NCBI GenBank assembly: GCA_037481775.1
Contig: JBBFKZ010000003.1
Span: 81,826-145,825 of the forward strand
DNA: 64,000 nt
From: Candidatus Bathyarchaeia archaeon
GTDB lineage: Archaea > Thermoproteota > Bathyarchaeia > Bathyarchaeales > Bathycorpusculaceae
Direction of reading: 5' to 3'
The notes beneath the pieces are model-generated. The model had not been told where the DNA came from. It was given only the letters and a program-made list of their open reading frames with translations, and searched no databases. The translations under genes and the position numbers were made by a program. This document shows, piece after piece, positions 13,098 to 61,645 of the stretch (within the stretch, counting starts at the first letter, position 1; the number at the start of each line of letters is the position of its first letter).

Positions 13098-13105
13098 GCA
13101 AGCTT

Positions 13106-14547
13106 TCAGGCTGGCGGTTTTCTCCAGAATAGGTAGATTTTGGTTTGGGCTGTGAAGCTTAGGCGCTTAAGCGTTAGCGCTAGGTCGTCTATGCTCATGG
13201 TGGAGATTTTCGCTAGGAATTCTTCGTGCTTTGGGTAGACGCTTTTTAGTTTGGCTAGGCGTCTGCGTATGGTGGCGTCGCGTTGGGATAGCGTTTCAAG
13301 CACTGTAAGAATCTTGTTACAGCCTATTTGGTTGATTTTTTGTTTGCAGTATTCGGTGTTGGTGAGCAGCGGAGTGTCGAAGCCGAGTTTTTGCAGTTGT
13401 GTTAGCGCGTTTGTTATGTGAGGGCGGGGTTTGCTTTCGGCTATGCGTTGCATGCCGGCTTTTTCGAAGAATGGGTTGTAGCGTGCCATTACGGCGACTG
13501 TTTCTACGCAGGGTGTTCCTGCTTGTGTGAGGGTTTCGGCGACGAGTTTGGCGCCTAGGCCTATGCTGCGGTATTTTGGGTGTATTATTACTCGGCTGAT
13601 GGTGCTGATTTCCCGTTGTAACTGTGTGAGTGTGCCTTTCCATGCTTTGCTGCGTCCGAAGCATGTTGGCGGCGGGTAGCTGTAGACGATTACGCCGATT
13701 GTTTCGTTTTTTCGTTTGAGAAGATTTTTAGGTGTGGTGGCAGGTGTGCGGTGCGGTAGTGGAATTGGCTGAGTGCTTTGTAGTCGTCTATTGTGCCCTG
13801 TGTGATGCGTGTTTGTCTTGTTAGGCTGCAGCTTTGGGCTTTTGCGTGTGGGTTGTAGCTTATGTGGATTTCTTTTCCGTAGCGTTTATGGATGTGTACG
13901 TTTGGTGCTAAGTCAGTTTTGATGTCGATGTGTGTGGTTGCTGCGATTACAGCTTTGCCGAGTGTGCGTGCGAGTTTTTGGAGGTTGTAGGCGATGATTT
14001 TGGCGGTGTCGCGGTCCAGTGTGCTGGTGAATTCGTCTATTATCCACCATTGTGCTGGTGTTTCTGCGAGGCGTGCGATTTGGTAGCGGTGTTTTTGGCC
14101 GTCGCTAAGTTGCGTGTATGTGCGGAGGAAGAGGAAGGCGTCGTTTAGGCCGACTTTGCTGAGGAGTTCTAGGGCTTCTTGTGTGTTTGCACCTATGGTG
14201 TCGATTATGGGTGTGTTTTTGTCGAATTGGAGGTCGCGTGTGTCCTGTGCTGCTGTGCCGAGGTCGGTTTTGATGGCTTGGAGTAGGGCGCTTTTGCCGC
14301 TGCCGCTGTCGCCTGTGATGAGGACGATGTCGGTTGGGCGTATGCGTATGCGGGTGTTGTCGTATATTGTGAAGTGCTGTGTGTTGTCGGCGCCGAGTCC
14401 GAAGGCTTCTGCGACGGCGCATGTGCGTTGTGTTTGTGTGGCGGGTGCGGTTTCGTAGGTGATGGTGTAGGTGAATGTGTTGGTTTTGCGGTTGTAGGTT
14501 CGTTTGAGTGCTTGGATGCGGAAGTGCTCTGGTTTGCGCCGTGTCAT
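13106..14547 (-). pseudogene. ABC-type ATPase fused to GNAT/Mom-like acetyltransferase (COG2401-like), frameshifted near 13720
   Basis: GDSGSGKS, LSDGQ, IIDEF, ATTH; after the shift the frame reads GVIVYSYPP...ISRVIIHPKYRSIGLGAKLV...MARYNPFFEKAGM. Confidence 0.8.
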
Positions 14548-15979
14548 CTGGTTGTGCCTTCTGTTTTGTGGCGGTTTAGTCTTTGTCGTAGCTTGTTGAG
14601 GCTTGTTTTGCCCTTGCTTGTTTTGGAGATTACCCAAAGTTGCGGTTGTGGCGGGGTGCGTGCGGCGTAGACGGCGAGTGCGAGAGCCCAGAAGCGGTCG
14701 TCGTGTGTGCCTGGTGGGTGTGAGAGTAGGATTTTGCCGTCTTTGGTGAGCGTGTAGCGTTCAGTGTTTAGTTCGGCGATTAGGTTGCTGTCGTATGGTA
14801 TGCGTAGGCGTTTTTCGGTCATTGTTTGCCGGAGCCATTGGGCCATTTCCTGTTTTGTTTGTTGGGTGAATTTTGCGGCTTCTGTGTTTGTTAGGCCTGT
14901 GTTGGTCATGTCTTCAGTTATGTAGTCGCCTACGCCGCTGCTGTCGGTGAGGATTTTGTGGATTTTTTGCCATCGGTCGTTTATGGTTTTGACGTAGCCG
15001 ATGACGCTTGCGTATGGTGTGTTTAGTGGGAAGCGATGCATGTGTGTTAGTTTTAGTGTGTTGTTTTCTGTTTTTATTATGGCGAGGACGCTGTGGTCTT
15101 GGTGTTTGCCGAGGTCTAGTCCGGCGTAGAAGTCGCCTGTTTGTGTTTCTTCGAATTGGGCGTACTCCAGTGTGGAGTCGATGCATTGGGTGATTAGTGC
15201 TTGGGGGAGCCAGACGTTTTCGTTTTCTGCCCATTGGGCTTCCATTTCGCGTTGCCAGCGGGCGGGGTCGCCTTCGAGTTGGCGTTTTATGCGGGTGAGT
15301 ATTTGCGGTTTTAGTGGTCCGGCGGGTTCTAGTGCTTGTTGCCATGTTACGTGTGTTTTGGCGTAGTCGGCGTATGTGGGGTCGTGGAAGATTTTGTAGA
15401 AAATATGCTGTTTGTGTGCCATGGTGTGCTGGTGCAGATGAATTTGCCGTTTGTTGTGCCGAGCGTGAAGAGCATGGCGTCGTAGAGTTCTTCGCCGTTT
15501 GGGATGAAGTTGAATTCGTCGGCGTAGACGATGTGGAGTTTGGGTCCGCGTATGGTTTCGGGGTTGTTTGGGTATGCTTCGATGGTGCTGCCGTTGTTGA
15601 GTGCGACGGTGGTTTTCTGTGGTTTTTTGTAGGCGTTTCGTGGGAGCTTGGTGAGGAAGCTGTTGATGTGTTTGATGATGAGTTTGGTTTGTCTCCAGCT
15701 TGGTCCGACTATGCCGATGTTTACGTTTGGGTTTGTAAGCGCGTAGTGGAGGAGTAGGGCGCTTATGATGTGGCTTTTTCCTGTTTGTCTTGCCCAGCGG
15801 GCGGCTATGAATTGGCTGTTTTGGAATTGGCGTATGAGTTCGGCTTGGTAGGTGGTGGGTGTGAAGCCGAGGGTTTCGGTGCAGAACTGAAGTGGGTCTG
15901 CGGGGACGGCGAATTTTTTCATTTGGGCGGTTTTCTGTTTGAGCTGCCGGAGTTCTCTTTCCAGCGTTGTGAGGGTCAT
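14544..15979 (-). pseudogene. terL: Terminase large subunit, frameshifted near 15400
   Basis: ARQTGKS Walker A, VYADE Walker B and STP (15347-15979); nuclease GLDLG, DSSGVG, HDDRFWALAL (14544-15422). Confidence 0.85.
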
Positions 15980-16326
15980 TGTTTTTCGAGTTCTCCTATG
16001 GTTTTGCGGAGTTGTTCGAGTTCGGTTTTGATTTGGGTGATGTCGTAGGTTTTGCTGATGCTGTTGATGACTTGGCTGATGTAGGCGGATAGGCGCACCC
16101 AGTTTTGGCGTTCTGCTGGTTTTTTGCCTCCTGTTTCGAGAGCTTGTTCTGTTGCTATTTCGAGGAGGCTTCGGAGTTCTTGAATGAGTTGGCTGCGAAT
16201 TCGTTGGGTGTCGCCGTCGAATTTTTCGGTGAGGTCGGTTATTCTTTTCTGTAAAAAGCGTTTATGACGGGGAGATTCTCCTCTCCCTCTATAGGTTTTC
16301 TGCATAGATTGGCTATTAGGCTCCAA
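15976..16326 (-). CDS. Helical protein, candidate terminase small subunit
   Basis: Directly upstream of terL with ATGA overlap; TTG start after GGAGG; positional inference only. Confidence 0.45.
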   Translation of the reverse strand: MEPNSQSMQKTYRGRGESPRHKRFLQKRITDLTEKFDGDTQRIRSQLIQELRSLLEIATEQALETGGKKPAERQNWVRLSAYISQVINSISKTYDITQIKTELEQLRKTIGELEKQ

Positions 16327-16343
16327 ATATGTTCGCCTCCGGG

Positions 16344-16595
16344 CTATGTTTTCTGCGCGATTAGTATGCCTGTGATTGTGCCTGCCAAGCCTGTGATGGC
16401 CGCGAAGACTTCGCTGTTCCATGCGCCTAAGAGCGCGAGGTGCGCGATTTCTATGGCTGTTAGGCTGAAGGTTAGGGCGATGGCGAATTTTACGCTGAGC
16501 ACTAGGCGCTCGCTGGGCTCCGCTTCCGCTGCTGCTTGCGTGGCTGTCTTGTCGGTGGTTTTCCGCGTCAAAGCCCGCTTAATCCAGTCAGTCAT
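16344..16595 (-). CDS. Small two-TM protein of the viral cassette
   Basis: Two hydrophobic segments; overlaps the upstream gene. Confidence 0.6.
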   Translation of the reverse strand: MTDWIKRALTRKTTDKTATQAAAEAEPSERLVLSVKFAIALTFSLTAIEIAHLALLGAWNSEVFAAITGLAGTITGILIAQKT

Positions 16596-16989
16596 GGTTT
16601 CTCACCCTCTGCTGCCGCAGGCAGCGGCCTAAGCTGGGCTTTTTGTTTTTGGCTTTCTCGTTGATTAGGAAGCTGTTCAGCAGCTGCTTCGCCTCCTCGG
16701 CTGCAACATGCGCCTTGGCTAAGACGGTGACGCCTGTGGCCCACGGCACCGGCACCGCCGTGTAGTCAATGTCATATAAGCCATCGCTGTAGCGAAAGCA
16801 ATTCTGCGCTAATATTATGTGCTTGCGCTTCTGCCCCAGCACGCCGACGAAGACGCCCCAGCTCTTGACGGGCACGTCTATGCCGCTGACGCCATTGCTT
16901 AAGCTCTTGCCGATGCTGGCGTCATGCCACTCTAACATGACAAGGTCGCCAGCGCTTAAGCCCTTAATCTGGTTGAGGACTTCCTTCAT
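16588..16989 (-). CDS. Hypothetical beta-rich (SH3-like) viral protein
   Basis: GDLVMLEWHDAS...SWGVFVG pattern resembling small phage VxWxDA proteins. Confidence 0.6.
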   Translation of the reverse strand: MKEVLNQIKGLSAGDLVMLEWHDASIGKSLSNGVSGIDVPVKSWGVFVGVLGQKRKHIILAQNCFRYSDGLYDIDYTAVPVPWATGVTVLAKAHVAAEEAKQLLNSFLINEKAKNKKPSLGRCLRQQRVRNHD

Positions 16990-17040
16990 GTGTTATTATC
17001 AAAAGAAAACGCGATCAATCGCAAATATAAAGACTCGCTA

Positions 17041-17060
17041 AATTTACCAATTGGTAAATT
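17041..17060. repeat. Perfect 20-bp palindrome AATTTACCAATTGGTAAATT
   Basis: Read directly; lies in the divergent intergenic region about 50 nt upstream of the viral cassette. Confidence 0.9.
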
Positions 17061-17209
17061 CACACATTTACAAAAGGCAAATGAGTAGTTTGAGCAAAAT
17101 CAGCATCTCTATGTAGCAAATATGAGATTTGAAATTTGAATAAAATAAAGTTTAAACGAAATACCAAAGTATATATTGCTATTTGATGAAATTAATAAAT
17201 TGACAGAAC

Positions 17210-17560
17210 ATGACGTTATTTGAAGTGATGGCTGCCTTATCCGCAACATTTGCCTTAGGTATTCCGACATTTATGGAAAAAGTCATGCGTCCCAAATACG
17301 AAGAACGCTTTTCGGAGTTCAGAGAGGCGAGAAGAGATTCATTCATAGATGAATTTGAAAAAGCATTACCTCAATTGAAACAGGCCAAACAAGAACTAAC
17401 CCCTGAGATAATAGAGACGATGGAATCATTGTTTAATGAATGGGAAGAAGTTAAGTCGGATGAAAACAAACTTACGGTTTTACTCAATTGTAGAAAGTTT
17501 TTCTTTATCTTTTGGTTAGTGTCTTGTGCCACGTCATTATTTGCGATTCAATATTCGAAC
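17210..17560 (+). pseudogene. 3'-truncated AT-rich membrane protein gene (reads through to 17728)
   Basis: Composition and protein character change abruptly near 17560. Confidence 0.5.
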
Positions 17561-17722
17561 CGCAGCGGACGCGTCAACATACGTCTCATCAGGACCAGAA
17601 ACCACACTCAAAACCAAACGCATCTTATCTTTCAATTCGGAATGCAGAAAAACAAGGTGCTCCCACCGCTCTTCATTCAGAGTCACCTCAGTGTCATCGA
17701 AAACCACAACCAGCATCAGCAA
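17537..17722 (-). pseudogene. Truncated RelE/BECR-fold toxin-like gene
   Basis: VTLNEERWEHLVFLHSELKD...PDETY resembles the N-terminal half of PBECR/RelE-like RNases; C-terminal half absent. Confidence 0.45.
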
Positions 17723-17928
17723 CCTTAAACATTAGACCCCTCAATCAACCTATAAAACTAACTCAAAATATGCCTGACACCTCTTCAAAACTCCCCCAAG
17801 CCACACACCCAATAACTTTTCACCGATGCCAACAGCGATGACGCCTAGACCAATCCAGCCATTCCCGCAGCTTCGCCAAAAACTTATATCCCCTCTGTGC
17901 TCATACCAATGGCTAAGGAAATGAGAAA

Positions 17929-18249
17929 ATGAAAGGAGCCATAGTTTTTCTAGCAGTCTTCGCCATAGCAGTCATAATAACCATTGGAAACACGGCAATA
18001 CCCCCGGGAAAAGCAATCTACGACGCCCTCTTACCAAACACTGAAGCAGCCTCAGGCTACCTCGTCGGCGGCCAAGTAGACGCTATAACACTGATAATCG
18101 CAGTTTTTAACGGCGTAATATACGGCTTCATCGCCTGGCTAATATTCACCATAATAAACGCAGTATTCAAAAAAGACAAAAAACAAACCGTCCAGCAAGT
18201 AGTAAACGTCAACATCAGCGACAAAGACAAAAATGCCACCGTAAAATAG
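17929..18249 (+). CDS. Hypothetical two-TM membrane protein
   Basis: Clean ORF with two hydrophobic helices. Confidence 0.7.
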   Translation: MKGAIVFLAVFAIAVIITIGNTAIPPGKAIYDALLPNTEAASGYLVGGQVDAITLIIAVFNGVIYGFIAWLIFTIINAVFKKDKKQTVQQVVNVNISDKDKNATVK

Positions 18250-18453
18250 CGCACACCACACACAAAACGCATACAAAATACCTATGCTCTACATTTTTTC
18301 ACTTAAACCCTTAACAAGCTACACGCCAACAGCACCCTACACAAGCAAAAGCAGTTTTCACTCATCAAACCTCCAGCACAAGACCCGTTAAAACTTGAAA
18401 ACGGGAATGTTTTTATGGCTTCACGCAACTAACAAGCATGGTGAAAACAAAAA

Positions 18454-18684
18454 ATGAACACACCACTTGAAAAGAAAGTACAAGCAGCCCTCGCCGAAAT
18501 AAAACCGCAAATCCAAGCAGACGGCGGAGACATCGACCTCGTCGCCGTGGAAAACGACACCGTAAAAGTCCGCCTACGAGGCGCATGCGCAGGCTGCCCC
18601 ATGTCTATGCTAACGCTCAAACAAGGCGTGGAACGCATAATCAAACAGAAAGTTCCCGAAATAAAACGCGTCGAAGCAGTCTAA
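18454..18684 (+). CDS. NifU/Nfu-domain Fe-S scaffold
   Basis: DGGDI...LRGACAGCPMS..TLKQGVE. Confidence 0.9.
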   Translation: MNTPLEKKVQAALAEIKPQIQADGGDIDLVAVENDTVKVRLRGACAGCPMSMLTLKQGVERIIKQKVPEIKRVEAV

Positions 18685-18755
18685 CCGCCAAACAGCCCTG
18701 CCAAACAGAACCAAGTTTTCTCCTTTTAACGGCGTCCGAAGCCGAAGGCATCAAG

Positions 18756-19418
18756 CTAAGGCTTAGCCTTCCGCCTTTTCCGCTTAGACCGCAAACGCTT
18801 CTCCCAGCAGGAAGGACAATAAACAGGCTTACCACCCCCAAACTGAAAAGGCACAGCACACGAGCCGCCGCATACACTACACACTGCACCGCTAGCCCCG
18901 CCCTGCTGGAACTGCCGGAAAAGCCTGTAGCGCTTCAGCCGCGGCAACGCCGTCTTCGCATACCGCAGCATCCTAGGATTAGCCTTCAACCACCCGAGCA
19001 TGTGAAAGAAGCTCTTCGCCCGCTTCTCCTCGCGGTCAGCAAGCGGCTCATAACCCAAATTCCGCAGCTCGTCCAAATAGGCGATTTCCACAAGCCGCTG
19101 CGCCTCGCCCGCAACCCGCACCCGCTTAACCCGCGCCTCACCGTAAACCCGCTGCAGCTCAGCCGCCGCCACATCAAAAACATAACCCTGACACACATGA
19201 ATCTCCTCGTCAAACCCAGGCCTCAAAGCAGCCACAAGCCGCAACGTTAAACGCGCAGCCTCCTGCAAATAGGCTTTCGCAGCAAAAAGCGCCGGGTCCT
19301 GATAAAACCTGACGTCAACCAAGTCGTATTTGAACTCGCCAGTTTCCTCGCGGTAAACGCCCACAACCACGCCGAAAAGCAAGTCGCCGCTACCCGCGTC
19401 ATCCACAACAAGCGTCAT
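18756..19418 (-). CDS. RNase H-like fold protein with C-terminal CxxC-x17-CxxC zinc ribbon
   Basis: VVDDAGSG (RNase HII-like), VCQGYVF, CSVC...VPF...KPVYCPSC. Confidence 0.7.
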   Translation of the reverse strand: MTLVVDDAGSGDLLFGVVVGVYREETGEFKYDLVDVRFYQDPALFAAKAYLQEAARLTLRLVAALRPGFDEEIHVCQGYVFDVAAAELQRVYGEARVKRVRVAGEAQRLVEIAYLDELRNLGYEPLADREEKRAKSFFHMLGWLKANPRMLRYAKTALPRLKRYRLFRQFQQGGASGAVCSVCGGSCAVPFQFGGGKPVYCPSCWEKRLRSKRKRRKAKP

Positions 19419-19506
19419 AGAAACTGCTAAGCCTCTTTCCCCAAGCATAACCCAAACACGTATAAAAACAGTATTCTAAAAACCCAGAGAAAACCGCGCA
19501 ACGCAA

Positions 19507-21336
19507 CTAAGGCCGCCGCAGCCGCCTTCGCCTAACATAAACCGCACCCGCGAAAGCCACAGCCAAAACAATGGCCACATCAAAATAAGGCGCTAACAAC
19601 TCACCGTAATCAGCCGCCTCCACGTAGCCTCCAGCGCCTTCGGCGCCCTGAAGCAGCTGCCCAGAGCCGTTAAGCGGTTCAATCTTTAGGTTCTTGAATG
19701 CCACAGCCCTCTCCGTGTTATTCGCTATAAGCATCACCAGCCCTCCGGCATCTGCCACTTCCCGCGGCGCCTCCAAAGTCTCCAGAAACGTCCCATTCGC
19801 ATCTTGCAACTGCGCAGTCACCTCATCCTCAGTTATCTTCGCAGCCACCCTATACCACACGCCTTCTTCTATACGCTCCGACATATTCATGAAAGCAACT
19901 TCGCTGAGCGCACTTACCTGATTGATATCATGATAGTCTAAGCCCTTAACATTCACCGTGTAATTGCCGACGCCGCTGTTCTGCAAGATAAGCGCAAACT
20001 GACTATGCATCGTCTCCGCCAAGTCCTCAGGCAACCTCAACGGCTGAAAACCCTGCGGTATCTCAATTTCCTCAAGAACCTCCAGCGCCTCTTCTTCCGC
20101 AGAAACCGTAATCAGCCGCCCGCTTCTCAGCACAATAAACTCGCCAGTAAGCAGGACGCCGGCGCCGGACAGCTGAGCATCAAGGAAATCTTCAACTCCC
20201 TGCCATAAGCTGAGCTCGTAATGGGCAACGTAAGTGCGGCCGTAAGTGTAATAGTAGCCGACGCTCTCGAACTGAACAAGCGACGCGGGAAACCCGATGA
20301 AAACCGTCAGCGCTTCGCTGTCTGCGCCTGCAACCTCCGCGTTGCCACCCCAGCTTGCCCGCACATAATAGGTGCCTGACGAAGTGACATTCCAGCTGAA
20401 AGAGTAGCAGCCGCAAGAATCCGTCTCCGTTCGGTACGCATCATACGCGATGCCATTATGGCTGACATACAGCACGACGGTTTCGTTTTCCCGTGCAGGC
20501 GTAAGCACGCCGGAAACTATCAGCTGCCGCTTCTCAAGGCTTACCTCTGCTGCAGCAGAGAGAGTAATTGTTAGAGACGCCGAAGGCAACGGGCTGCCCC
20601 AGCCTGCCGCGATTTGCGCTGGCAATGCAGGCTCGCTGTTTTCAAGCGTAATAATCCACGGTTGCTCCTCCGCCAAAACAGGCGGCACATCACCTACTTT
20701 CCACTCCATTGCAGCGGTACACTCGGCTATCCAGTATTTCCTGCCGCTCGACTCGTAGCCGGTGGCAGGCAGCCACCACCATGTGCCGCGCGGCGTGCAG
20801 GGCAAGTAGACGCCAACGTTAATGTGATGCGCCTCTTTGAAGTAGAGCAGGACAACGTCTAAGCCGCCGGCCTTCATGATTGACGCGGCGAGAAGCGACA
20901 GCGTATCACATTTCCCAGCGTTCTCCACTAGCGTCTCAACTGGATACTTGACGTCGCCGCTGGCGTAGGGAATCTGGTGAACCAGCATCAGCACGGCGTT
21001 AGCGAAATCTTCGTCACTGCGCTCGCCGTTGTCGGTGATGCTGCGGAGGCGCTCTGCAACCTGCTTAAACGCGTCAGGCGTAACAAGCGCAGCGTAGTCG
21101 CTGTCCCGAGTAATCCGTGGAGTTTTGGCATCGTAATACTCATAAAGCGAGGATGGCACGGCAACATACAGTTTCTGGCTGACGAGACCGAATTGAAAAT
21201 GGAAACTGAAAGTTCGCTCGTAATTGCCAGCAAAAGAGGCAGGAGTAAAAAACACCAGCAACAGAAGGGCAACAAGCAAAATGCCGAGGTTTCGATGCCG
21301 AAAACGCATGTGTTCTCTATGATAATATATTGTCAC
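19507..21336 (-). CDS. Cell-surface protein: transglutaminase-like domain, Ig-like domains, C-terminal TM anchor
   Basis: Signal peptide; GKCDTLS / HINVGV / YWIAECT putative triad; TM followed by an RRRR tail. Confidence 0.75.
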   Translation of the reverse strand: MTIYYHREHMRFRHRNLGILLVALLLLVFFTPASFAGNYERTFSFHFQFGLVSQKLYVAVPSSLYEYYDAKTPRITRDSDYAALVTPDAFKQVAERLRSITDNGERSDEDFANAVLMLVHQIPYASGDVKYPVETLVENAGKCDTLSLLAASIMKAGGLDVVLLYFKEAHHINVGVYLPCTPRGTWWWLPATGYESSGRKYWIAECTAAMEWKVGDVPPVLAEEQPWIITLENSEPALPAQIAAGWGSPLPSASLTITLSAAAEVSLEKRQLIVSGVLTPARENETVVLYVSHNGIAYDAYRTETDSCGCYSFSWNVTSSGTYYVRASWGGNAEVAGADSEALTVFIGFPASLVQFESVGYYYTYGRTYVAHYELSLWQGVEDFLDAQLSGAGVLLTGEFIVLRSGRLITVSAEEEALEVLEEIEIPQGFQPLRLPEDLAETMHSQFALILQNSGVGNYTVNVKGLDYHDINQVSALSEVAFMNMSERIEEGVWYRVAAKITEDEVTAQLQDANGTFLETLEAPREVADAGGLVMLIANNTERAVAFKNLKIEPLNGSGQLLQGAEGAGGYVEAADYGELLAPYFDVAIVLAVAFAGAVYVRRRRLRRP

Positions 21337-21461
21337 ATCTAAGACTTAAACGTTAGTTAGGGCGCGTCCATATTTGAAAGATAAAGCTTGAATTCTTATC
21401 GAAGCACAGTGCCCGCCGATTTCACTGTCCACTGAAAACGCCAAAAAAAGAGGCGGAGAGG

Positions 21462-22361
21462 TTAGAGCAGCAGGTCATTGGCGAATGAGTCACTTAATAC
21501 TGGCGTCTGGTATTTGCAGTTAGCCTTCGCATAGTCAAAAGCTTCCTCGACAGTAACATCCGCCTGTCCAGAAATGTGGTCGATTACGTCGGCATATTCA
21601 TGGAGCATCCCTTGATCCGCGAAGTAGTATGTGAACTGGCCGTTTTGGACGCTTTCAAACTCGTAGGATAGGCTGGACTCAGCACAAGCCATAACCACGA
21701 TTCGACCCGCAGCGGCAAGATCTGTCATCCCCCCAGCATAGCATGAGTCGAAAATGAAAATTATCCGTGAAGCCGCAACCTCAGAAAACAGGGCTGCAAG
21801 CTGCCCATCCCAGATCAGCGATTCAGCTGTGCACTCATAAGGAACTATGGCTTCATCAATAGCTTCCTTATCGCCGTCGTTGGCTTTGCCTCTTGCGCCG
21901 TGACCGCTATAGAAGAAGATAACTTCATCACCAGCGCTTACCCTTCCTTTTAACGACTTGATAGCTTCCACTATATTGTCGCGAGTTGCAGCGTCATTAG
22001 TGAGTAGTATAATATTAGTCTCTGAATACCCGTAAACTGTGATTAGAGCAGTCTTCATGTCCGAGGCATCGTCGTCCGCATATTCCAGATCGTTCGCGTT
22101 GCCAGCATAGTCGGAAATGCCTATAACGATAGCCCATTTACTTGCTCCCTGACCGAGCTCATCGCCTAGTGTGCCTGTTGCAGCTTGCCTCGGCGGTTTC
22201 GCGGGCTTGCCCATGGCCGCTGGCCCCTTAACGGTGATTTTCGGCGTTATCTCAACATCTGATGCATGCGGTGAAGCAGCGTAAGCCATCACCGGCAAGA
22301 GCAGGCTTAACAACAAAATAGCTATTGCTCCAAACAAAATTGCCCGTTTCATAATAACCAT
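21462..22361 (-). CDS. Secreted caspase-family (peptidase C14) protein
   Basis: AIVIGISDY, FFYSGHG and IFDSCYAG dyad motifs; signal peptide. Confidence 0.85.
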   Translation of the reverse strand: MVIMKRAILFGAIAILLLSLLLPVMAYAASPHASDVEITPKITVKGPAAMGKPAKPPRQAATGTLGDELGQGASKWAIVIGISDYAGNANDLEYADDDASDMKTALITVYGYSETNIILLTNDAATRDNIVEAIKSLKGRVSAGDEVIFFYSGHGARGKANDGDKEAIDEAIVPYECTAESLIWDGQLAALFSEVAASRIIFIFDSCYAGGMTDLAAAGRIVVMACAESSLSYEFESVQNGQFTYYFADQGMLHEYADVIDHISGQADVTVEEAFDYAKANCKYQTPVLSDSFANDLLL

Positions 22362-51977: not shown

Positions 51978-52567
51978 GCCTGTCTGTTACTAATGTTGTG
52001 GAACATGCTTTTTGCCCCAGGTTTACATATTTTCAGCTTGTCTTAGGTATACAGCAGAGAGAGGAAAAGCGGGGAACCGTTATTGCTGGGCGCGAGCTTC
52101 ACAGGCGCCATTCAACCACTAATCGAAACTATATAATCGCAGGGGTCAAAGGTAAAAAATTTGTAGAGGCATATATGTACTCAGAGAAGCTTCAACTTTC
52201 TGGCAAAATTGATGAGGCTATCGAGACTGCTGATGAGATTATAATAATTGAAAGAAAGTATAGTGATTATGTGAATGTCGGGGAAACGTTGAAGACGCAG
52301 CTGGGATTATTGGCTTTATTGGCTGAAGAAAATTTTAACAAGCGCGTTAAGCGAGCAATAGTGATTTTTCAAAAGAAGCATCGCGTGAAAATTCGTGTTA
52401 ACATAACCGAAAAAACTAAAAGCTTTGCATTAAAAGTGTTTCAGAACACCCGTTCTGTGATACAAACAGGAATTATGCCTCGATCAAAACAGGATAATCG
52501 ATGTATAAATTGTTGCTACAGAAAATTATGTCCACCCAACAGATTAAAGAACCAAGTGACGAATTAA
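51974..52567 (+). CDS. cas4: Cas4
   Basis: CPR, GKID, ERK, CINCCYRKLC. Confidence 0.93.
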   Translation: MSLSVTNVVEHAFCPRFTYFQLVLGIQQREEKRGTVIAGRELHRRHSTTNRNYIIAGVKGKKFVEAYMYSEKLQLSGKIDEAIETADEIIIIERKYSDYVNVGETLKTQLGLLALLAEENFNKRVKRAIVIFQKKHRVKIRVNITEKTKSFALKVFQNTRSVIQTGIMPRSKQDNRCINCCYRKLCPPNRLKNQVTN

Positions 52568-52674
52568 TGATTTTGTTTATAAATACTCAAATAATTTATA
52601 GAGCACAATAATCTAACTTCAAAAAGATGGGAGGAATCAATCTAAAAAACAAAAAGAAGACCAAAAAACCTGCC
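52568..52674 (+). promoter_or_regulatory. CRISPR leader
   Basis: AT-rich with TTTATAAA; lies between cas4 and the first repeat. Confidence 0.7.
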
Positions 52675-55170
52675 GTCGAAAAGACTAATCCAACAAAACA
52701 AGGATTGAAACTCCCAGATGTTCATGCATGTAGCCCTGAAGGTTTCCGTCGAAAAGACTAATCCAACAAAACAAGGATTGAAACAATGGCTATTCCTTTC
52801 GTTCCACACCAAACCCGTGAGTCGAAAAGACTAATCCAACAAAACAAGGATTGAAACTAAGCATCTCATAGTCGCTTGGCAAATGCAAATCGTCGTCGAA
52901 AAGACTAATCCAACAAAACAAGGATTGAAACTGATCAGTGGTTTCAGGTTAAGACTGCGGTTGGAAGGTCGAAAAGACTAATCCAACAAAACAAGGATTG
53001 AAACCGCCTAAAAAATGGCACTGACAGACTTGTGCTATACGTCGAAAAGACTAATCCAACAAAACAAGGATTGAAACTATGAGTAGAAGTTGTAAGCATG
53101 TATCTGTCAAAACGTCGAAAAGACTAATCCAACAAAACAAGGATTGAAACTTTTTTCATATTTAGAAGTGTTTAAATAAGTCGATGGTCGAAAAGACTAA
53201 TCCAACAAAACAAGGATTGAAACCCATTTTCATCAACACAAAGCACTTTTTCACCAACAAGTCGAAAAGACTAATCCAACAAAACAAGGATTGAAACCAT
53301 TCACGTTGACTGCAACGGCTTGGGGTTTCTATGTCGAAAAGACTAATCCAACAAAACAAGGATTGAAACTTTAGTATCCTTTTTTTTCCTTTCTTTTCTT
53401 GGAGTCGAAAAGACTAATCCAACAAAACAAGGATTGAAACAAAAGTTTAACGGATGGCTAGATGAAATGCTGAAGAGTCGAAAAGACTAATCCAACAAAA
53501 CAAGGATTGAAACCCGTCAGGCGAGATGTATGCTTCCTGTAGGCTGTGTCGAAAAGACTAATCCAACAAAACAAGGATTGAAACTTTAGCTGTAGGTTTT
53601 GAGGTGATGTTAGCGTAATATTGTCGAAAAGACTAATCCAACAAAACAAGGATTGAAACACGTTCCAGCCTGCTATAAGATGTGGCTGAGTGTCTTGTCG
53701 AAAAGACTAATCCAACAAAACAAGGATTGAAACGGTTAACTGTTCAAAGCCGCCACTGTCGGCTACTAAGTCGAAAAGACTAATCCAACAAAACAAGGAT
53801 TGAAACTCAGTGTCAGCAGACGGTGAAGTTGCAGCGCGCGAGTCGAAAAGACTAATCCAACAAAACAAGGATTGAAACTTGGTGCGGGGGACGGTGAAGC
53901 AAGAGGATACATTGAGTCGAAAAGACTAATCCAACAAAACAAGGATTGAAACTTGTGAGCGGTAACAGTGTCCCACGAGCTGGAACACACGTCGAAAAGA
54001 CTAATCCAACAAAACAAGGATTGAAACCAAGGATAACATGGTTAGGCACTTCGACACAATATGGTCGAAAAGACTAATCCAACAAAACAAGGATTGAAAC
54101 TAGGCTTCTGGACCGAATAAGTTGTGGCGGGGGTGAAGTCGAAAAGACTAATCCAACAAAACAAGGATTGAAACCATTTCAACCAGCATTTTCTGTGTTC
54201 GGCGACAACGTCGAAAAGACTAATCCAACAAAACAAGGATTGAAACTTCGTCGGTGTTCAGTAAATGGCAGATAGAGAACAAGTCGAAAAGACTAATCCA
54301 ACAAAACAAGGATTGAAACAACCGTCTATTCTCCATCTATTTCGTTTATACCAGTCGAAAAGACTAATCCAACAAAACAAGGATTGAAACACGAGATGAG
54401 CAAGCCTTTCAACGCCAGCCGTCTGTCGAAAAGACTAATCCAACAAAACAAGGATTGAAACAATAATTAACCTTATGATAAGCTATGTATAGATTCTGTC
54501 GAAAAGACTAATCCAACAAAACAAGGATTGAAACGCTTCGGGACGCGAAGAATCTTCATGAGTTCTTTGTCGAAAAGACTAATCCAACAAAACAAGGATT
54601 GAAACTGGTTAGCTAGATTCTTTGACGTAGAAGACTGGAGAGTCGAAAAGACTAATCCAACAAAACAAGGATTGAAACTATTTCACCAGGTCAGTGTCTG
54701 AGAGGACTTTGTAGTCGAAAAGACTAATCCAACAAAACAAGGATTGAAACGCGAGTGGCTGAACGAAATGTTAGCGATCACCAGGGGTCGAAAAGACTAA
54801 TCCAACAAAACAAGGATTGAAACTTATATACGGTCAAAGAAAAAAAAGAGAAGGTGAGTCGAAAAGACTAATCCAACAAAACAAGGATTGAAACGAACTT
54901 GCCGAATTTCTTCAGCAAACCTAAGATCAGTCGAAAAGACTAATCCAACAAAACAAGGATTGAAACTATGCTTACACGAGCCTATAACACATTACAAAAA
55001 GTCGAAAAGACTAATCCAACAAAACAAGGATTGAAACCGTACCCCTATTATTTGTCCTCCTAAAACTATGGGTCGAAAAGACTAATCCAACAAAACAAGG
55101 ATTGAAACTGTTCACGTAAACAGGATCGGCTGTGATGTTAAAAGTCGAAAAGACTAATCCAACAAAACAA
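52675..55170 (+). CRISPR. CRISPR array: 34 identical 37-bp repeats plus one truncated terminal repeat, 34 spacers of 34-38 bp
   Basis: Repeat GTCGAAAAGACTAATCCAACAAAACAAGGATTGAAAC counted by eye; last copy (55144-55170) lacks GGATTGAAAC. Confidence 0.98.
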
Positions 55171-55177
55171 TTACTGC

Positions 55178-55599
55178 TTACATTAAAATCTCACCCGAGA
55201 TAGGGTGATCTTCTAGACACTGCCGCGAGTTGATGAGAAAATCTTCGGAATAGCCACCTAAGCAACGCGATAAGCGTCTTCTAAAAGTCAAGGCGGCGAT
55301 TAGCGAAGAGAGCAGGTAACCTGTGGCTTGCAAAAGTCCACTTTAACTAATAAGATATTAGAAGGGTGCAATGGAGCACCATAAAGCACGCGGCATAGTC
55401 ATGTTAGAAGGATGATGGGCCGCAAGAGTGTGTTGGCAACATGAATATACTTCAACATTTAACAAGCAACTTCGCTGGCAACCCATATGGATACCATGCA
55501 AAAGCAGTTTCAACTATGGAAGAAGCGTGCAAGCTCCAAGTGTGCTTCGAGTACGTCTGCGCCGTGGATGGAAAGAAACTGTTCAGAAAGCGGAAGTGA
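55178..55599 (+). pseudogene. Decayed tyrosine integrase, C-terminal catalytic region
   Basis: Broken frames give LPRVDEKIFG / SRRRLAKRAGNLWLAKVHF / IRY*KGAMEHHK / HVRRMMGRKSVLAT*IY / EEACKLQVCFEYVCAVDGKKLFRKRK*. Confidence 0.7.
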
Positions 55600-58519: not shown

Positions 58520-58774
58520 TACGCATCATCAACTAAGAGCATTGCAGCTTATGGTAAAAAATGTATCGAGAACAACTACGCGCGTCTGCATTCTAGCGTA
58601 TATTAATTCTAAGACTACCCTGCAGCTTCTACGCAACTGTTGCCGCGATAGCCCCTCTATAGGTTTCTGCAATGAATCGCTAATAGGCGCCAAATATGAA
58701 GCTACAAACACGCCAAAACATCACCAACAAACCATGCGCAAACGACAAAAAAGCATGCTTAAGTGGACACTGCA

Positions 58775-60469
58775 TTATTCACTTTTGTATCGACCTTTCT
58801 TTGAGAACTGCCGCTCATAAATTCGCCTAACCGTCTCGATAGTATCTGCCTCCTCCGGCGTCTTATCATCTCGTATGCGGATTATACGCGCAAACCTAAG
58901 CGCCAAACCAGATCGATACTTCGGGCTTCTCTGAACTTCATTAAAGGCAACCTCAACCACAACCCGCGGAAGCACCTCCACACGGTTGCCCTCCTCACGC
59001 ACAGCCAACGTCTTAAGCCGCTTCGTCATCTCAGCTAACTCCGCATCCGTTAGACCCTTAAACGTCTTACCCACATTCAAAAACTCGCCTCCGGCAACAT
59101 CCCACGCAGCCAAATAATAATCCGAAAGCCACCCATGCCGACGCCCATACCCATATTCAGCCGCCGTAATCACCAAATCCAACGTCTCCAACACAGGCTT
59201 AATCTTAAACCAACGCTTCCCACGCGCCCCAGGCAAATAAGGACTATCAAGTTTCTTCGCCATCAACCCCTCATGCCCGGCATCCATGGCCTCCTTCAAA
59301 AACGCCTCTGCCACATCCACGCTGCTAGTAACAGCTTGCTTGGTTAACGGTATCTCTCCAGCAGCCTTTGCCAATAGCCGCCGACGCTGCACATACGGAA
59401 GCGAAATCAGGCTTTCCCCGTCCAGATAAAGAACATCAAACAAGTAAAGCCTAACAGGAATCTTCTCAGCGGCATCTTGCACTCCATGAACACGCCTAAA
59501 CCTACGCATCAAATGCTGAAAAGGAATAGGACTGCCGCTACGATCTACAGCAATAACCTCACCCTCCATAATGGCTTCATTCGCCTTAACATTAGCTCTA
59601 ACAGCCTCAACAACCTCAGGAAGACTCCGAGTCACATCAGTAAGCCTCCGACTGAAAACACGTACCACATCGTCGCGCTTATGAATCTGAACCCGCGCTC
59701 CATCATACTTATACTCCAAAGCTGTTTCGCCACCATGCTCCGCCAAAGCCTCAGCAACACCACCTGCCATCTGAGCCAACATCAGCGCCACAGGCCTAAA
59801 AACTCGAAAACCAAACTGCTCCAACCGCGCCCTGCCCTCAGTCTTCGCCAACGCAGCCACTTCAGCAATGTCGCCAAGCGCCATGCTTGCCTTCTGCACC
59901 GTCGCCAACGGAACATCAAAAGCCCGCGCAACCGCCTGCTCCATCAACCCCTCATGCAATCCAGTACGCATCTCGCCAATGAAAAGCTTCACTAAATACT
60001 TAATCTCCAAAGGCGAAGCCTGACTAAAAAGCGTCATCATCAAACGCTCCTTCTTTTCCCTTGAACCCGAACCAGCAACATCAGCAATAGACTCAAGTAA
60101 ACGCCTAACCTCAAGAATCGTCAACACCTTGTCTAGCAGCAGCGCTTGCTTCTTCACAGCGGTTTTTTCAAAAACAACCTTCGCCGCAGCGCCAACATCC
60201 CCAGTGCCCGCGAAAGCCTCATGGAAAACACTCCAGCCAGCGCCCGTTAACCGCTGAAGCACCCCGCGGAGAGTTGCCCAACTTACATCCAAAGTCTTCT
60301 GGCTCCACTTCGGAAACGCCCGCCCAAGAATCATAGACACCGCAGGCTCCACCTCCTCCGCTTCTAGTCGCTTCAAAAAATCAACCGCCAACTCAACTAT
60401 CTCCAACCGTTTCTTAGTAGCCTCTACCTTTTCAAGCAGAAACGCCAAAGACTCAAAAAGCATCGCCAT
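58775..60469 (-). CDS. lig: ATP-dependent DNA ligase
   Basis: EYKYDG, EGE, FDVL, EGLMAK, WFKIK, ALRFAR. Confidence 0.95.
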   Translation of the reverse strand: MAMLFESLAFLLEKVEATKKRLEIVELAVDFLKRLEAEEVEPAVSMILGRAFPKWSQKTLDVSWATLRGVLQRLTGAGWSVFHEAFAGTGDVGAAAKVVFEKTAVKKQALLLDKVLTILEVRRLLESIADVAGSGSREKKERLMMTLFSQASPLEIKYLVKLFIGEMRTGLHEGLMEQAVARAFDVPLATVQKASMALGDIAEVAALAKTEGRARLEQFGFRVFRPVALMLAQMAGGVAEALAEHGGETALEYKYDGARVQIHKRDDVVRVFSRRLTDVTRSLPEVVEAVRANVKANEAIMEGEVIAVDRSGSPIPFQHLMRRFRRVHGVQDAAEKIPVRLYLFDVLYLDGESLISLPYVQRRRLLAKAAGEIPLTKQAVTSSVDVAEAFLKEAMDAGHEGLMAKKLDSPYLPGARGKRWFKIKPVLETLDLVITAAEYGYGRRHGWLSDYYLAAWDVAGGEFLNVGKTFKGLTDAELAEMTKRLKTLAVREEGNRVEVLPRVVVEVAFNEVQRSPKYRSGLALRFARIIRIRDDKTPEEADTIETVRRIYERQFSKKGRYKSE

Positions 60470-60574
60470 AACCCTTAACCTGAAAACTCCTAAATACACT
60501 CGCGTTAATTACATAGGCGAATTCGAGGTAAAAAAGGTGAACGGTAGACGACGCTGACGAAACACGAAAAACGT

Positions 60575-60949
60575 TTAGAAACTGCTCTCGAGCTTTGCTT
60601 TAACCTCTTTAATCCGCTTATCCAGCTCCTCAACCTTCGCAGCGTTTCCCAAAGCTCTGTAACAGTCTCTTGCAAAATCTAAAGCACTCAAACCGAAACG
60701 GTCATAGCCCTTCTCAAAAGAAAGCTCCGCAGACCGCATAAACGCCTCAGCAGCGCTCTCATATTCCTTCAGGCTAAAGTTGCACTCGCCAGCCTTGTAA
60801 AGCATAGTTGTAGCATCAAAAAAATTCTGCTTCTTTCTATAAAGCTCAGCAGTCCTCAAGAAAAGCTCACGTGCCTCCACAAACTTGCCAGCATCAAAGA
60901 GGTTATTCGCATCCTTATGCATCTTAACCGGGTCTTCTTTTTCACTCAT
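60575..60949 (-). CDS. TPR-like helical repeat protein
   Basis: Repeating A..F...AE.Y and KAGEC helices. Confidence 0.7.
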   Translation of the reverse strand: MSEKEDPVKMHKDANNLFDAGKFVEARELFLRTAELYRKKQNFFDATTMLYKAGECNFSLKEYESAAEAFMRSAELSFEKGYDRFGLSALDFARDCYRALGNAAKVEELDKRIKEVKAKLESSF

Positions 60950-61076
60950 AACCTTTCAACTCATAGGCTATATCAAGCAACGCACTCCAATTTAGATTTT
61001 CCCCTCAAGGCAACATGAAAAACATAGAGTTAAAAATAACACAAACCAAATAACAACTATAAAAGTGGGGATACAC

Positions 61077-61616: not shown

Positions 61617-61645
61617 AGATACAACATTCTATCCTGTGAAACAAA

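Follow-up and report, generated by a model that had tools for sequence, protein, structure and literature searches.

The window, as we call the whole 64,000-nucleotide stretch of DNA analysed here, carries one large two-sided unit of strand skew, in which kilobase tracts of opposite keto/amino composition flank an unskewed centre. The left tract (13100..16300; + strand 71% G+T) is the terminase/ABC-ATPase cassette of a Bathyarchaeia virus-like element, set on the - strand. At the distal cassette end lies a 127-aa ORF without family match (13106..13489; G+T at position 3 of the coding strand, GT3, 0.19); next to it are a phage-type ABC ATPase gene (13690..14637; PF00005, 1.4e-11; phrog_293, 7.5e-36; GT3 0.10) and the terminase large subunit (14544..15979; PF03237, 5.5e-14, and PF17289; phrog_2, 2.9e-29; phrog_5909, 2.3e-17; GT3 0.11-0.13), the latter as two overlapping ORFs for its nuclease half (14544-15422) and its ATPase half (15347-15979). 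(At 15400, contigs from two other studies are shorter by 2 nt; by arithmetic, this places the terminase halves in one frame.) Upstream of the terminase is a 148-aa coiled-coil ORF (15976..16422, - strand; GT3 0.23), across which the skew climbs and for which family searches gave no match.

The centre begins with the 133-aa cassette head gene (16588..16989, - strand), which is unskewed (plus-strand position-3 G+T 0.58) and in whose product a fold was looked for and none recognised. It continues through an AT-rich divergent intergenic region (16990..17209; GC ~0.33) into the first 110 codons of a 172-aa ORF (17210..17540, + strand), likewise unskewed (position-3 G+T 0.47). The intergenic region contains a 14-nt perfect palindrome (17044-17057), which the initial annotation, placing it at 17041, had nominated as a switch-point motif; it is absent from other switch points and from the sister-species loci, and the nomination lapses. 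The right tract (17560..19550; + strand 35% G+T) covers genes for a 106-aa membrane protein (17929..18249, +; GT3 0.14), a NifU-like domain (18454..18684, +; PF01106, 3.4e-29; GT3 0.16) and a 230-aa treble-clef zinc-finger protein that is conserved in the genus (18756..19448, -; PF23477, 1.7e-9; coding GT3 0.77). The skew fades along the gene of a 609-aa surface-type protein (19507..21336, -), in which plus-strand position-3 G+T by thirds from the 3' end is 0.26, 0.43 and 0.47.

The two domains had been claimed from short counts, 46 G+T of 60 at 14701-14760 and 47 A+C of 60 at 17701-17760. Recounting gives the same figures, and the domains are real: G+T of the + strand is 0.712 over 13100-16300 (A.126, C.162, G.348, T.364) and 0.347 over 17560-19550, that is, 4.5 to 7 sd from a whole-genome mean of 0.500 (sd 0.030 in 3.2-kb windows, n=1064; sd 0.034 in 2-kb windows with the same mean, n=1742). 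The spacer (16301-17559) stands at 0.517, and the weakening skew of 19551-21000 at 0.439. Borders are sharp at ~13.08-13.10 kb and ~17.55 kb and gradual at 16.2-16.7 kb and 19.55-20.4 kb. Within the left domain the skew forms a level plateau up to an abrupt outer edge at the cassette 3' end, here and likewise in the relatives G002 and G008 (G000 being this genome). In the left domain GC and TA skews average +0.37 and +0.49, in the right domain -0.30 each, and the two skews correlate over 12-22 kb (r=0.76, compared with r=-0.20 in the remaining window).

The skew sits at codon position 3. On the + strand, position-3 G+T is 0.77-0.90 in the five - strand ORFs of the left domain; in the right domain it is as low in genes of the - strand (0.23 for the zinc-finger protein, 0.26 for the last third of the 609-aa gene) as it is low in the 106-aa and NifU-like genes of the + strand (0.14 and 0.16). 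Since + and - genes there carry values of the same sign, right-domain polarity belongs to the physical strand; a skew that follows the coding strand fails as an account of this locus, and the original view that codon preference is not the cause, and that the footprint is one of strand-specific substitution, is borne out. Independence from gene direction holds for the right domain and not genome-wide, where the coding strand is A+C-rich in about three quarters of patch windows (31 vs 9 in G000 and 115 vs 36 in G013, with the coding strand called from purine loading, a proxy that gave the right strand for 86% of 720 control genes, and with 30 and 53 ambiguous windows, respectively, left out). 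Genome-wide, coding GT3 of adjacent genes shows a correlation of r=+0.40 when the two share a strand (n=912 pairs) and of r=-0.17 when they lie on opposite strands (n=477).

This skew is a real, inherited mutation footprint. The same locus order is found in four sister species, with single contigs spanning the syntenic locus in G002 and G005; the left domain is common to G001, G002 and G004 (85-87% identity to the window) and the right domain to G001, G002 and G005. An 11,238-nt contig from an unrelated metagenome study spans 13104-21500 with 81 differences (~99% identity) and includes both domains, and parts of the locus are also on contigs from two further studies. The skewed tracts of the window are single-copy, and their proteins are intact and conserved, the skew lying at silent sites. 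The genome is a metagenome assembly in 54 contigs, which speaks for an artefact (wrong sequencing or assembly, a chimeric join, or the division of a single skewed block by inversion); set against these observations, such an origin is exceedingly improbable. A chimeric join fails on sister-species synteny and on the other study's bridging contig, and inversion of one block on the lack of inverted repeats >37 nt between the two halves and on the order cassette - head gene - opposite domain, which is kept in other genera and recurs in G008 and G013. On terminal branches of the sister species, the left domain shows 57 changes to amino vs 17 to keto bases (78 vs 89 in the flank); its relaxation there implies that the skewing process is not constant.

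The supposition that the 17-kb region is a special feature does not survive a genome-wide view: this 1.8-Mb genome has 136 such segments, and the pattern is family-wide. The share of the genome that lies in skewed patches is ~4.5% here and 13% in a relative; 232 segments are present in a related genome of 1.46 Mb, and individual segments measure 0.1-7 kb. Housekeeping genes (DNA ligase, CysRS, NifU) are hit, in either sense. Patches have a preferred order. In G000, keto precedes amino in 22 pairs of opposite-sign neighbours <=1.5 kb apart and follows it in 4 (p=5e-4), and for directly abutting patches the counts are 18 vs 1; the corresponding counts in G013 are 11 vs 3 for patches >=1 kb within 5 kb of one another (p=0.057) and, as a trend only, 29 vs 17 with all segments counted (p=0.10). 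The mean profile of the 18 direct flips in G000 passes from 0.67-0.685 to 0.358, with outward decay over ~1.2 kb, and the flip centres are AT-rich (GC 0.37-0.38). Half of these flips (9/18) lie in divergent intergenic regions, which account for 17.5% of gene junctions, and none lies in a convergent one. GGCC occurs within 40 nt of none of the 18.

The packaging cassette is skewed in the same direction as here in five to six genera searched. A homologue of the 133-aa gene adjoins the cassette in 10 of the 12 sequences searched (and in 103 viral-contig stretches as well). With the cassette set on the - strand, the + strand over it is G/T-rich in seven of the ten loci that have the 133-aa gene, these seven coming from five genera, and the cassette skew begins 500-750 nt past the start codon of that gene. 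An A/C-rich domain lies on the other side within 5 kb in four of the seven, over unrelated host-type genes that stand in either orientation and differ between genera. The halves, at first described as mirror images, are opposite in sign but unequal. Position-3 G+T in the cassette is 0.04-0.09 in G013, G008 and G015 (0.99 in one G013 ORF), and GT3 of the terminase match is 0.04-0.23 in G013, G008, G015, G007 and G017, with the frame open over 432-542 codons.

Substitutions run from amino to keto bases on one strand, transversions included. This direction, which the initial annotation had proposed to establish by comparison with orthologues, was read at position 3 of a DNA-ligase patch, with changes polarised against G002=G005=G018. 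Rates are 0.56-0.72 for A>G and 0.59-0.63 for C>T, and 0.11-0.13 for each of the transversions A>T and C>G, as against reverse changes of 0.07-0.11 (G>A), 0.01-0.04 (T>C), 0-0.01 (T>A) and 0 (G>C) (Fisher p=0.025 and 0.002). The ligase patch of G007 is the mirror image: antisense through two genes in G000, G001 and G004, the patch has the opposite sign on the same genes in G007. DNA ligase is vertical within the genus and skewed in some species only. Deamination had been offered as the source of A>G and C>T; the keto-enriched strand does show both changes, but pure deamination is not supported, transversions to the same base class being raised as well.

NucS, present in this genome, is the only mismatch enzyme detected in the organism (NucS/EndoMS); MutS_V was not found in this 96.7% complete genome. 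As described in the consulted portions of two papers, NucS/EndoMS barely cuts A/C, A/A and C/C mispairs (PMC4838380; PMC6159521). These are exactly the mispairs that would turn a new strand A+C-rich, and they include the two transversion types observed here. No paper found ties NucS to local skew, and a literature search for NucS together with GRINS (see below) brought up unrelated papers. Acting genome-wide, NucS alone explains neither the places nor the bursts, and the transversions do not single it out, since abasic-site bypass could also yield them.

In each tract, A/C has gone to G/T on the strand with its 3' end facing the centre or, what is equivalent, G/T has gone to A/C on the strand that outward synthesis from the centre would make; silent sites took the change because the proteins were held by purifying selection. 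We tentatively favour, while giving it somewhat less than even odds, a mechanism of repeated one-strand exposure and resynthesis proceeding outward from a fixed centre (at this locus 1.1 kb, from the 133-aa head gene through its divergent promoter region into the beginning of the gene that follows). One strand would be removed and remade repeatedly from a preferred start zone. The trigger might be a double-strand break or nick followed by 5'-3' resection (the break at this locus perhaps being a cut by the cassette's own terminase near the cassette head) or, alternatively, nick- or transcript-primed strand replacement. C>U and A>hypoxanthine lesions would gather on the strand left single, mispairs that NucS/EndoMS barely cuts would persist in the new one, and the two effects would push the same way. 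The polarity was from the outset described as the opposite of that usual at origins; it is opposite to that of the Orc1-linked origin of G013, hence not origin-like, and is as expected for 5'-3' resection from a central break.

Several observations count against this mechanism or parts of it. The left domain stays level and stops abruptly at the cassette 3' end, without decay over distance, and a plateau of this kind is easier to reconcile with a unit bounded by transcript or cassette than with randomly long resection tracts. The centre is unskewed, though DNA adjacent to a break should be the most exposed; a double-strand gap refilled on both strands would account for this, as an added assumption. 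Near-saturation, as in the cassettes at 0.04-0.09 and 0.99, takes a very large number of events at a single place over long periods, the process is not constant, the order of all segments in G013 is only a trend, and no break, nick site or common motif was found.

The plateau that halts at the operon end also favours a transcription-coupled origin, which is possible, if on the doubtful side. Each tract would then be a transcription unit, including read-through into genes of either orientation, with biased damage or repair enriching the non-template strand in A+C or its template partner in G+T. Of 66 tract ends that would serve as starts, 41% are <=100 nt from a gene start (random points: 18% of 5000), and 28% of 67 far ends are near a gene stop (vs 17%). 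The gene at such a start faces into the tract in 20 cases and away from it in 10, and the divergent placement of flips and the A+C-rich coding strand of most patch windows agree. The sign, however, is the reverse of that in the classical asymmetry of transcription, which enriches the exposed non-template strand in G+T; there is no mean trend along genes (GT3 0.508 in the first 20-codon bin and 0.458-0.476 in all later ones, n=1102); the genes hit are not obviously the highly expressed ones; and the ligase patch runs antisense through two genes in three genomes and has the opposite sign in G007.

Selection in place of mutation, for non-self-pairing mRNA from a strand without G+T or for DNA free of palindromes or restriction sites, might be useful to a virus-derived cassette and would suit its near-saturation across genera with an open terminase frame, as well as the joint excess of transitions and transversions to one base class, as fixation bias would give. 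It is nonetheless unlikely: the same sign spans genes on both strands and intergenic DNA, so that the target cannot be any one property of an mRNA; at each silent site selection would have very little strength; patches fall on housekeeping genes in either sense; and cassette relatives on viral contigs are mostly unskewed. That last observation also weighs on imported composition, that is, pieces of a fully skewed virus or other donor inserted either way round. The viral nature of the cassette and the strong over-representation of terminase genes among skewed genes (16 of 28 matches in 41 genomes have GT3 <=0.30 or >=0.65, vs 104 of 1691 genes in G000) are in its favour, but 55 of 73 viral-contig loci are unskewed (0.45-0.55) and 3 are <=0.38 (of 80 loci kept, 7 were too short, and in the other 73 the cassette side is present), the head gene of the cassette itself lacks skew, the genes under the right domain are unrelated, of host type and not the same from genus to genus, and the ligase, though vertical, is skewed only in some species; import is very improbable. 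Little probability attaches, too, to a replication-linked origin, whether a fork-convergence or termination zone (the former already suggested in the annotation) or a cryptic, repeatedly firing origin of an integrated element. The centre is AT-rich, and by the rule that holds within the lineage the sign is that of a terminus: the best Orc1/Cdc6 gene of G013 (1,080,125) coincides with the minimum of cumulative skew, and 20-kb keto skew turns there from -0.08/-0.04 to +0.04/+0.05. The segments are nevertheless far too many and too short for termini, and their amplitude is ~10x that of chromosome-wide skew. The two Orc1/Cdc6 matches in this genome are on C1 and C10, and none is on the window's contig.

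Among known systems, replication-associated asymmetry makes the leading strand G+T-rich, with sign changes at origin and terminus. It shares with the present tracts the base-class pair, GC and TA skews that move together and a point where the sign flips; the tracts differ in their tenfold amplitude, in a length of 1-7 kb in place of a replichore, in numbering dozens to hundreds per genome, and in a sign opposite to the Orc1-linked flip of G013. The asymmetry of vertebrate mitochondrial DNA stems from deamination of the strand left single in strand-displacement replication. It has a similar silent-site magnitude, with almost no G+T on one strand, and implies the same two transitions, but it extends as one polarity gradient over a whole small replicon, whereas the tracts are local patches in an otherwise unskewed chromosome. 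Kataegis, the clustering of mutations on single-stranded DNA at resected double-strand breaks, predicts the same geometry, damage to 3'-ended strands on either side of a break giving opposite signs left and right; its clusters arise in single events, each leaving between a few and some tens of C changes made by a known deaminase, whereas the tracts approach saturation over evolutionary time under purifying selection and change A as frequently as C.

The closest known kind is GRINS. In the consulted parts of their description, GRINS, like the tracts, have intense GC and TA skews that share their sign, abrupt switches between G+T-coded and C+A-coded DNA within ~1 kb, the strongest skew at third codon positions, and the same amino-acid shift (Gly, Val, Cys, Trp vs Pro, Thr, His, Gln) in proteins that remain functional. 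Those parts also mention skewed single-copy regions, and in them no description of a preferred two-sided order around a centre, such as the tracts have, was found. GRINS are there defined as duplicated (>80% identity within one PKS cluster), are tied to gene conversion and come from bacteria and some eukaryotes, whereas the tracts described here are archaeal and are not repeats but single-copy, extending over several unrelated genes and intergenic DNA.

On the plus strand, G+T makes up 71.2% of 13100-16300 and 34.7% of 17560-19550, and the 1.26-kb spacer between these left (~3.2 kb) and right (~2.0 kb) domains is unskewed at 51.7%; the background of this genome (54 contigs, 1.82 Mb), taken in 3.2-kb windows, has a mean G+T fraction of 0.500 with a standard deviation of 0.030. 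(The counts in the initial annotation, 46 of 60 G+T at 14701-14760 and 47 of 60 A+C at 17701-17760, are reproduced exactly.) Skew changes abruptly at the outer edge of the left domain (~13.08-13.10 kb) and at the inner edge of the right one (~17.55 kb), and gradually at the remaining two, fading over 19551-21000 (43.9% G+T). Mean absolute GC and TA skews, in 150-nt windows with a 30-nt step, are 0.37 and 0.49 in the left domain and 0.30 and 0.30 in the right, and GC skew follows TA skew over 12-22 kb with r=0.76.

The skew is carried by codon position 3, where the G+T fraction of the coding strand (GT3) is 0.10-0.23 or 0.74-0.77, against 0.31-0.62 at positions 1 and 2 (GT1 and GT2). The five ORFs of the left domain are all on the minus strand and have coding GT3 of 0.10-0.23. 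The right domain holds genes of both orientations, whose position-3 G+T, read on the plus strand, is 0.14 in a plus-strand 106-aa gene, 0.16 in a plus-strand NifU-like gene (PF01106, 3.4e-29), 0.23 in a minus-strand 230-aa zinc-finger gene and 0.26 in the last third of a minus-strand 609-aa gene. Polarity in the window is therefore a property of the physical strand, as initially proposed for the right domain. Codon positions 1 and 2 are also shifted, and the terminase and ATPase sequences of the left domain are rich in Thr, Gln, His, Pro and Asn for that reason. (A 3-kb stretch at window 52250-55250, with 39-41% G+T, owes its bias to A excess alone, with AT skew of about -0.3, GC skew near 0 and GC content of 35-43%, and so differs in kind from the coupled GC/TA skew of the patches.)

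The juxtaposition of the two domains is not an artefact of assembly. All five other species of the genus retain the surrounding 14 kb in synteny, at 78-87% identity, and two of them (G002 and G005) have it on single contigs; the left domain is shared by the sister species G001, G002 and G004, and the right domain by G001, G002 and G005. Near-identical DNA is present in sequencing runs of several studies, and an 11,238-nt contig from a different study spans 13104-21500 with 81 differences. The initial annotation had named a chimeric join, and one skewed block split by inversion, as readings that would undo its own. The synteny and the independent bridging contig dispose of the join; against the inversion stand the lack of long inverted repeats between the left and right halves, and the recurrence in other genera of the order cassette, head gene, opposite domain.

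The left domain is a viral packaging cassette. It encodes a terminase large subunit, whose ATPase and nuclease halves occupy two overlapping ORFs (PF03237, PF17289, phrog_2, phrog_5909), followed by an ABC ATPase of phage type (PF00005; phrog_293, 7.5e-36), as in the head-tail virus packaging cassette of Bathyarchaeia; ORFs of 148 and 127 aa have no family match, and no acyltransferase part was detected. A complete provirus, with capsid, portal, tail or integrase genes, is not present, in that genes within 12.2-22.4 kb include no viral family match among the neighbours, no tRNA lies in 8-26 kb, and neither attachment sites nor flanking repeats surround the cassette. At window 15400, where the two terminase ORFs overlap, contigs of two other studies are 2 nt shorter, and one of them carries 4 additional nt after 13719, close to the ATPase ORF's end; the interrupted frames of cassette genes in the assembly may therefore be strain-specific or assembly errors.

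The first gene of the cassette (16588-16989, minus strand) is unskewed and encodes a conserved 133-aa protein without Pfam or PHROG family match and with nothing below E=0.03 in a PDB sequence search. Its structure model (pLDDT 77.8) gives only weak small-barrel and ribosomal-protein matches in a Foldseek search of the PDB (E>=0.016, TM<=0.43), and uncharacterised phage proteins only in BFVD (E>=1.3e-3). The divergent intergenic region upstream of this head gene contains a perfect 14-nt palindrome (17044-17057) inside a longer 20-nt palindrome. A proposal that switch points might share it is not borne out: among 234 loci it occurs only here and in one close viral contig (L084), where it lies ~56 nt upstream of that contig's own 133-aa gene. 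It may be an operator.

The cassette acts as an anchor of the skew. Terminase_6N has 28 matches, spread over 20 of 41 related genomes, and GT3 of the matched part is at most 0.30 in 11 (four of these being one orthologous locus of the window's genus), at least 0.65 in 5, and between in 12; equally extreme GT3 is found in 104 of 1691 called genes of the window's genome. (The simple caller behind those calls chose antisense ORFs in the terminase region and so called it wrongly.) A tblastn search recovered the 133-aa gene in 10 of the 12 sequences examined. When loci are aligned on it, a G+T-rich plus strand (K) covers the cassette in seven (the window, G002, G004, G008, G013, G017, G023), starting 500-750 nt beyond the start codon of the 133-aa gene, and is absent from three more distant cassettes (G007:C15, G014, G040). 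In four of the seven (the window, G002, G008, G013), a domain with an A+C-rich plus strand (M) lies on the other side within 5 kb, over unrelated genes of either strand. The genome G015 likewise has K, gap and M, with no head gene detected. Among viral contigs bearing the head gene, the cassette side is strongly skewed in only 3 of 73 assessable loci and unskewed in 55; the virus family as such therefore does not carry the skew, which is a feature of the cassette copies resident in this host family. The link of the skew with a virus-derived cassette is confirmed.

Skewed patches are not confined to the cassette. A three-state HMM on G+T content finds 136 segments in the window's genome (81.7 kb, 4.5%) and 232 (13.2%) in the 1.46-Mb contig of G013, which represents another genus of the same family. 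Housekeeping genes are hit in either sense (GT3 is 0.81 for DNA ligase and 0.21 for CysRS). Repeats or mobile copies do not account for the patches: 25 islands of the genome are not copies of each other, no pair among them exceeds 80% DNA identity, the best pair being two Cas6-like genes with 72-78% identity over 163-791 nt, and no repeat longer than 37 nt lies within 12.7-22.5 kb. (The Cas6-like genes at C5:57928-58746 and C6:27709-28521 of the same genome, 72% identical in DNA, have a G+T-rich coding strand, with GT3 of 0.78 and 0.75.) Coding GT3 of adjacent genes is correlated at r=0.40 on the same strand (n=912) and at r=-0.17 on opposite strands (n=477).

Patches of opposite sign are preferentially ordered K|M, an order that is identical when read on either strand. 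In the window's genome, opposite-sign neighbours within 1.5 kb are K|M in 22 cases vs M|K in 4 (p=5e-4), and directly abutting tracts in 18 vs 1. The mean G+T profile of these 18 direct flips drops from 0.67-0.685 to 0.358 at an AT-rich centre and decays outward over ~1.2 kb; nine of them are in divergent intergenic regions (which make up 17.5% of gene junctions) and none in convergent ones. In G013, all segments together show a trend only (29 vs 17, p=0.10); counting just those patches that are 1 kb or longer and no more than 5 kb apart makes it clearer (11 vs 3, p=0.057), and most such pairs are separated, like those of the window, by an unskewed gap of 0.5-4 kb. A gene common to the centres of the G013 units was looked for by eye, and their ORF contents proved heterogeneous. 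No motif is shared by the switch points (ATACA, which scores best among 5-mers with p=5.7e-5 in 425 tests, is a composition word, and no 6-mer is of note), and GGCC occurs within 40 nt of none of the 18 flips. One 32-kb stretch, G013:C1:346923-379360 (overlapping locus L074, G013:C1:360000-379999), alternates K, M, K, M, K, M, with ORFs at GT3 of 0.99 and of 0.04-0.08 and a single direct M|K switch, located within the cassette ATPase gene or at its end.

Start-type tract ends (left of M, right of K) have a gene start no more than 100 nt away in 41% of 66 cases (random points: 18%), and far ends have a gene stop nearby in 28% of 67 (random points: 17%); at the start end, the adjoining gene runs into the tract in 20 cases and away from it in 10. 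A general 5' effect is rejected, the average gene having no gradient. With purine loading, which is transition-proof and was correct for 86% of 720 control genes, as a proxy for the coding strand, the A+C-rich strand is the coding strand in 31 windows vs 9 in the window's genome and in 115 vs 36 in G013, leaving out 30 and 53 ambiguous windows, respectively. The initial claim of independence from gene direction thus holds for the right domain of the window and fails for the phenomenon overall. Tracts tend to begin at gene 5' ends and to run with the first gene, and then ignore the orientation of later genes. Classical transcription-associated asymmetry enriches the coding (non-template) strand in G+T along transcribed genes; here the coding strand is A+C-rich in 31 of 40 and 115 of 151 assignable windows.

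Nor does the window locus show the skew switch of an origin or terminus, which would lie beside an initiator gene or where the cumulative skew of the chromosome peaks or bottoms out: the Orc1/Cdc6 matches of the genome are on C1 and C10, with none on the window's contig. The patch units in general are not origin-like, because replication skew at the Orc1-linked origin of G013 changes sign in the opposite sense, which bears out the initial remark that their polarity is opposite to the usual one. (Cumulative GC and keto skew of G013:C1 have their minimum at ~1,060-1,080 kb, at the best Orc1/Cdc6 match, 1,080,125-1,080,403; the polarity of this Bathyarchaeia family at its origin is thus weak and of bacterial type.)

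The direction and tempo of change can be followed in a second strong patch, window 58600-62650 (C3:140.4-144.5 kb of the genome), with an A+C-rich plus strand. At ~58.8-62.6 kb it holds the minus-strand DNA ligase gene, a minus-strand TPR gene (GT3 0.72) and two plus-strand genes (0.25 each). Ligase GT3 is 0.88 in G001 and G004, 0.52-0.54 in G002 and G005, 0.13 in G007 (another genus) and 0.35-0.60 in the other 12 orthologues, one row (L015) being left out of the comparison; the patch genes as a group are likewise more extreme in G001/G004, unskewed in G002/G005 and of opposite sign in G007. Polarised at sites where G002, G005 and G018 agree, position-3 changes of this patch in the window's genome, G001 and G004 have rates of 0.56-0.72 for A>G, 0.59-0.63 for C>T, 0.11-0.13 for A>T and likewise for C>G, 0.07-0.11 for G>A, 0.01-0.04 for T>C, 0-0.01 for T>A and 0 for G>C; those of G007 are the mirror image. 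The transversion asymmetries of G001 are significant (p=0.025 and 0.002), with values inflated by multiple hits. G001 and G002 ligases are 74.8% identical in protein and 74.0% in DNA, beside 90.6% DNA identity in the unskewed flank at the window's locus; patches can therefore build fast and alter proteins.

Skew in the relative has the same direction in 9 of 10 alignments of patches to G002/G005. The sole usable lineage-specific patch (506 nt) has A>G 19 vs G>A 7, C>T 32 vs T>C 10, A>T 9 vs T>A 3 and C>G 6 vs G>C 2. Terminal-branch changes of the left domain in G001, G002 and G004 (with the window's genome as outgroup) number 57 to amino (A/C) and 17 to keto (G/T), with 78 and 89 in the flank, so that left-domain skew is now decaying there. 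Strains differ at 18 left-domain sites, of which only 10 are polarisable: the window strain has 4 derived changes to amino, and the other strain 3 to keto, 1 to amino and 2 within class, numbers too small to be of use.

A left-hand K, a right-hand M, a centre that is sharp or gapped, and outward decay form the pattern expected of 5'-3' resection that starts at a central break. Strands with 3' ends, left single, would take C>U and A>hypoxanthine damage, and the resected strands would then be resynthesised outward from the centre; alternatively, nick- or transcript-primed strand replacement from the centre would produce the same signs. At the window locus, cleavage by the cassette's own terminase near its head is a plausible source of recurrent breaks. 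NucS is present in the genome and MutS_V was not found. EndoMS/NucS barely cuts A/C, A/A and C/C mispairs (PMC4838380); the resynthesised strand would thus retain the very errors that enrich it in A+C, and these would include both of the observed transversion classes. This reading fits poorly with the left domain being a flat plateau that stops at the operon end, with the unskewed centre, with near-saturation maintained across genera and with the 3:1 association of skew with gene direction, and a process bounded by transcription units is for these reasons kept as the main rival. A more novel reading, which we put forward as a possibility on the doubtful side, is an undescribed tract-wise recoding, in which bursts of one-strand replacement over 1-7 kb start from fixed centres (in many cases promoters, and in the window the head of a terminase cassette that has been domesticated) and blindness of NucS to A/C-only mispairs pushes the new strand to A+C, so that even an essential gene could be rewritten within a genus; such recoding would be what GRINS of NucS-bearing Actinobacteria have as their single-copy counterpart, and would supply the mechanism that they lack.

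Standard models of prokaryote genome evolution do not include local mutation pressure of this strength, in which one base class fills 90-99% of silent sites and an essential enzyme has as many as a quarter of its residues replaced within a genus. Such tracts distort gene calling, the detection of codon usage and horizontal transfer, and phylogenies of the genes affected. If they mark recurrent one-strand resynthesis, they chart, at no cost and from sequence alone, the places at which breaks or strand replacement begin in uncultured archaea, and offer a testable cause for GRINS. Listings from literature searches contained neither an account of patches like these in archaea nor a connection between GRINS and NucS.

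GRINS (PMC8256042) are the closest described kind, and are defined as longer than 500 bp, with mean absolute GC and TA skew above 0.15, and duplicated at >80% DNA identity within a gene cluster. Both domains of the window exceed this length and both skew values, and their GC and TA skews are correlated and strongest at third codon positions. Coupled skews, abrupt switches, third-position load and amino-acid shifts are all common to GRINS and the tracts described here. The tracts differ in lacking the defining repeat (no pair among the 25 islands reaches >80% identity), and in being archaeal, multi-gene and preferentially two-sided.
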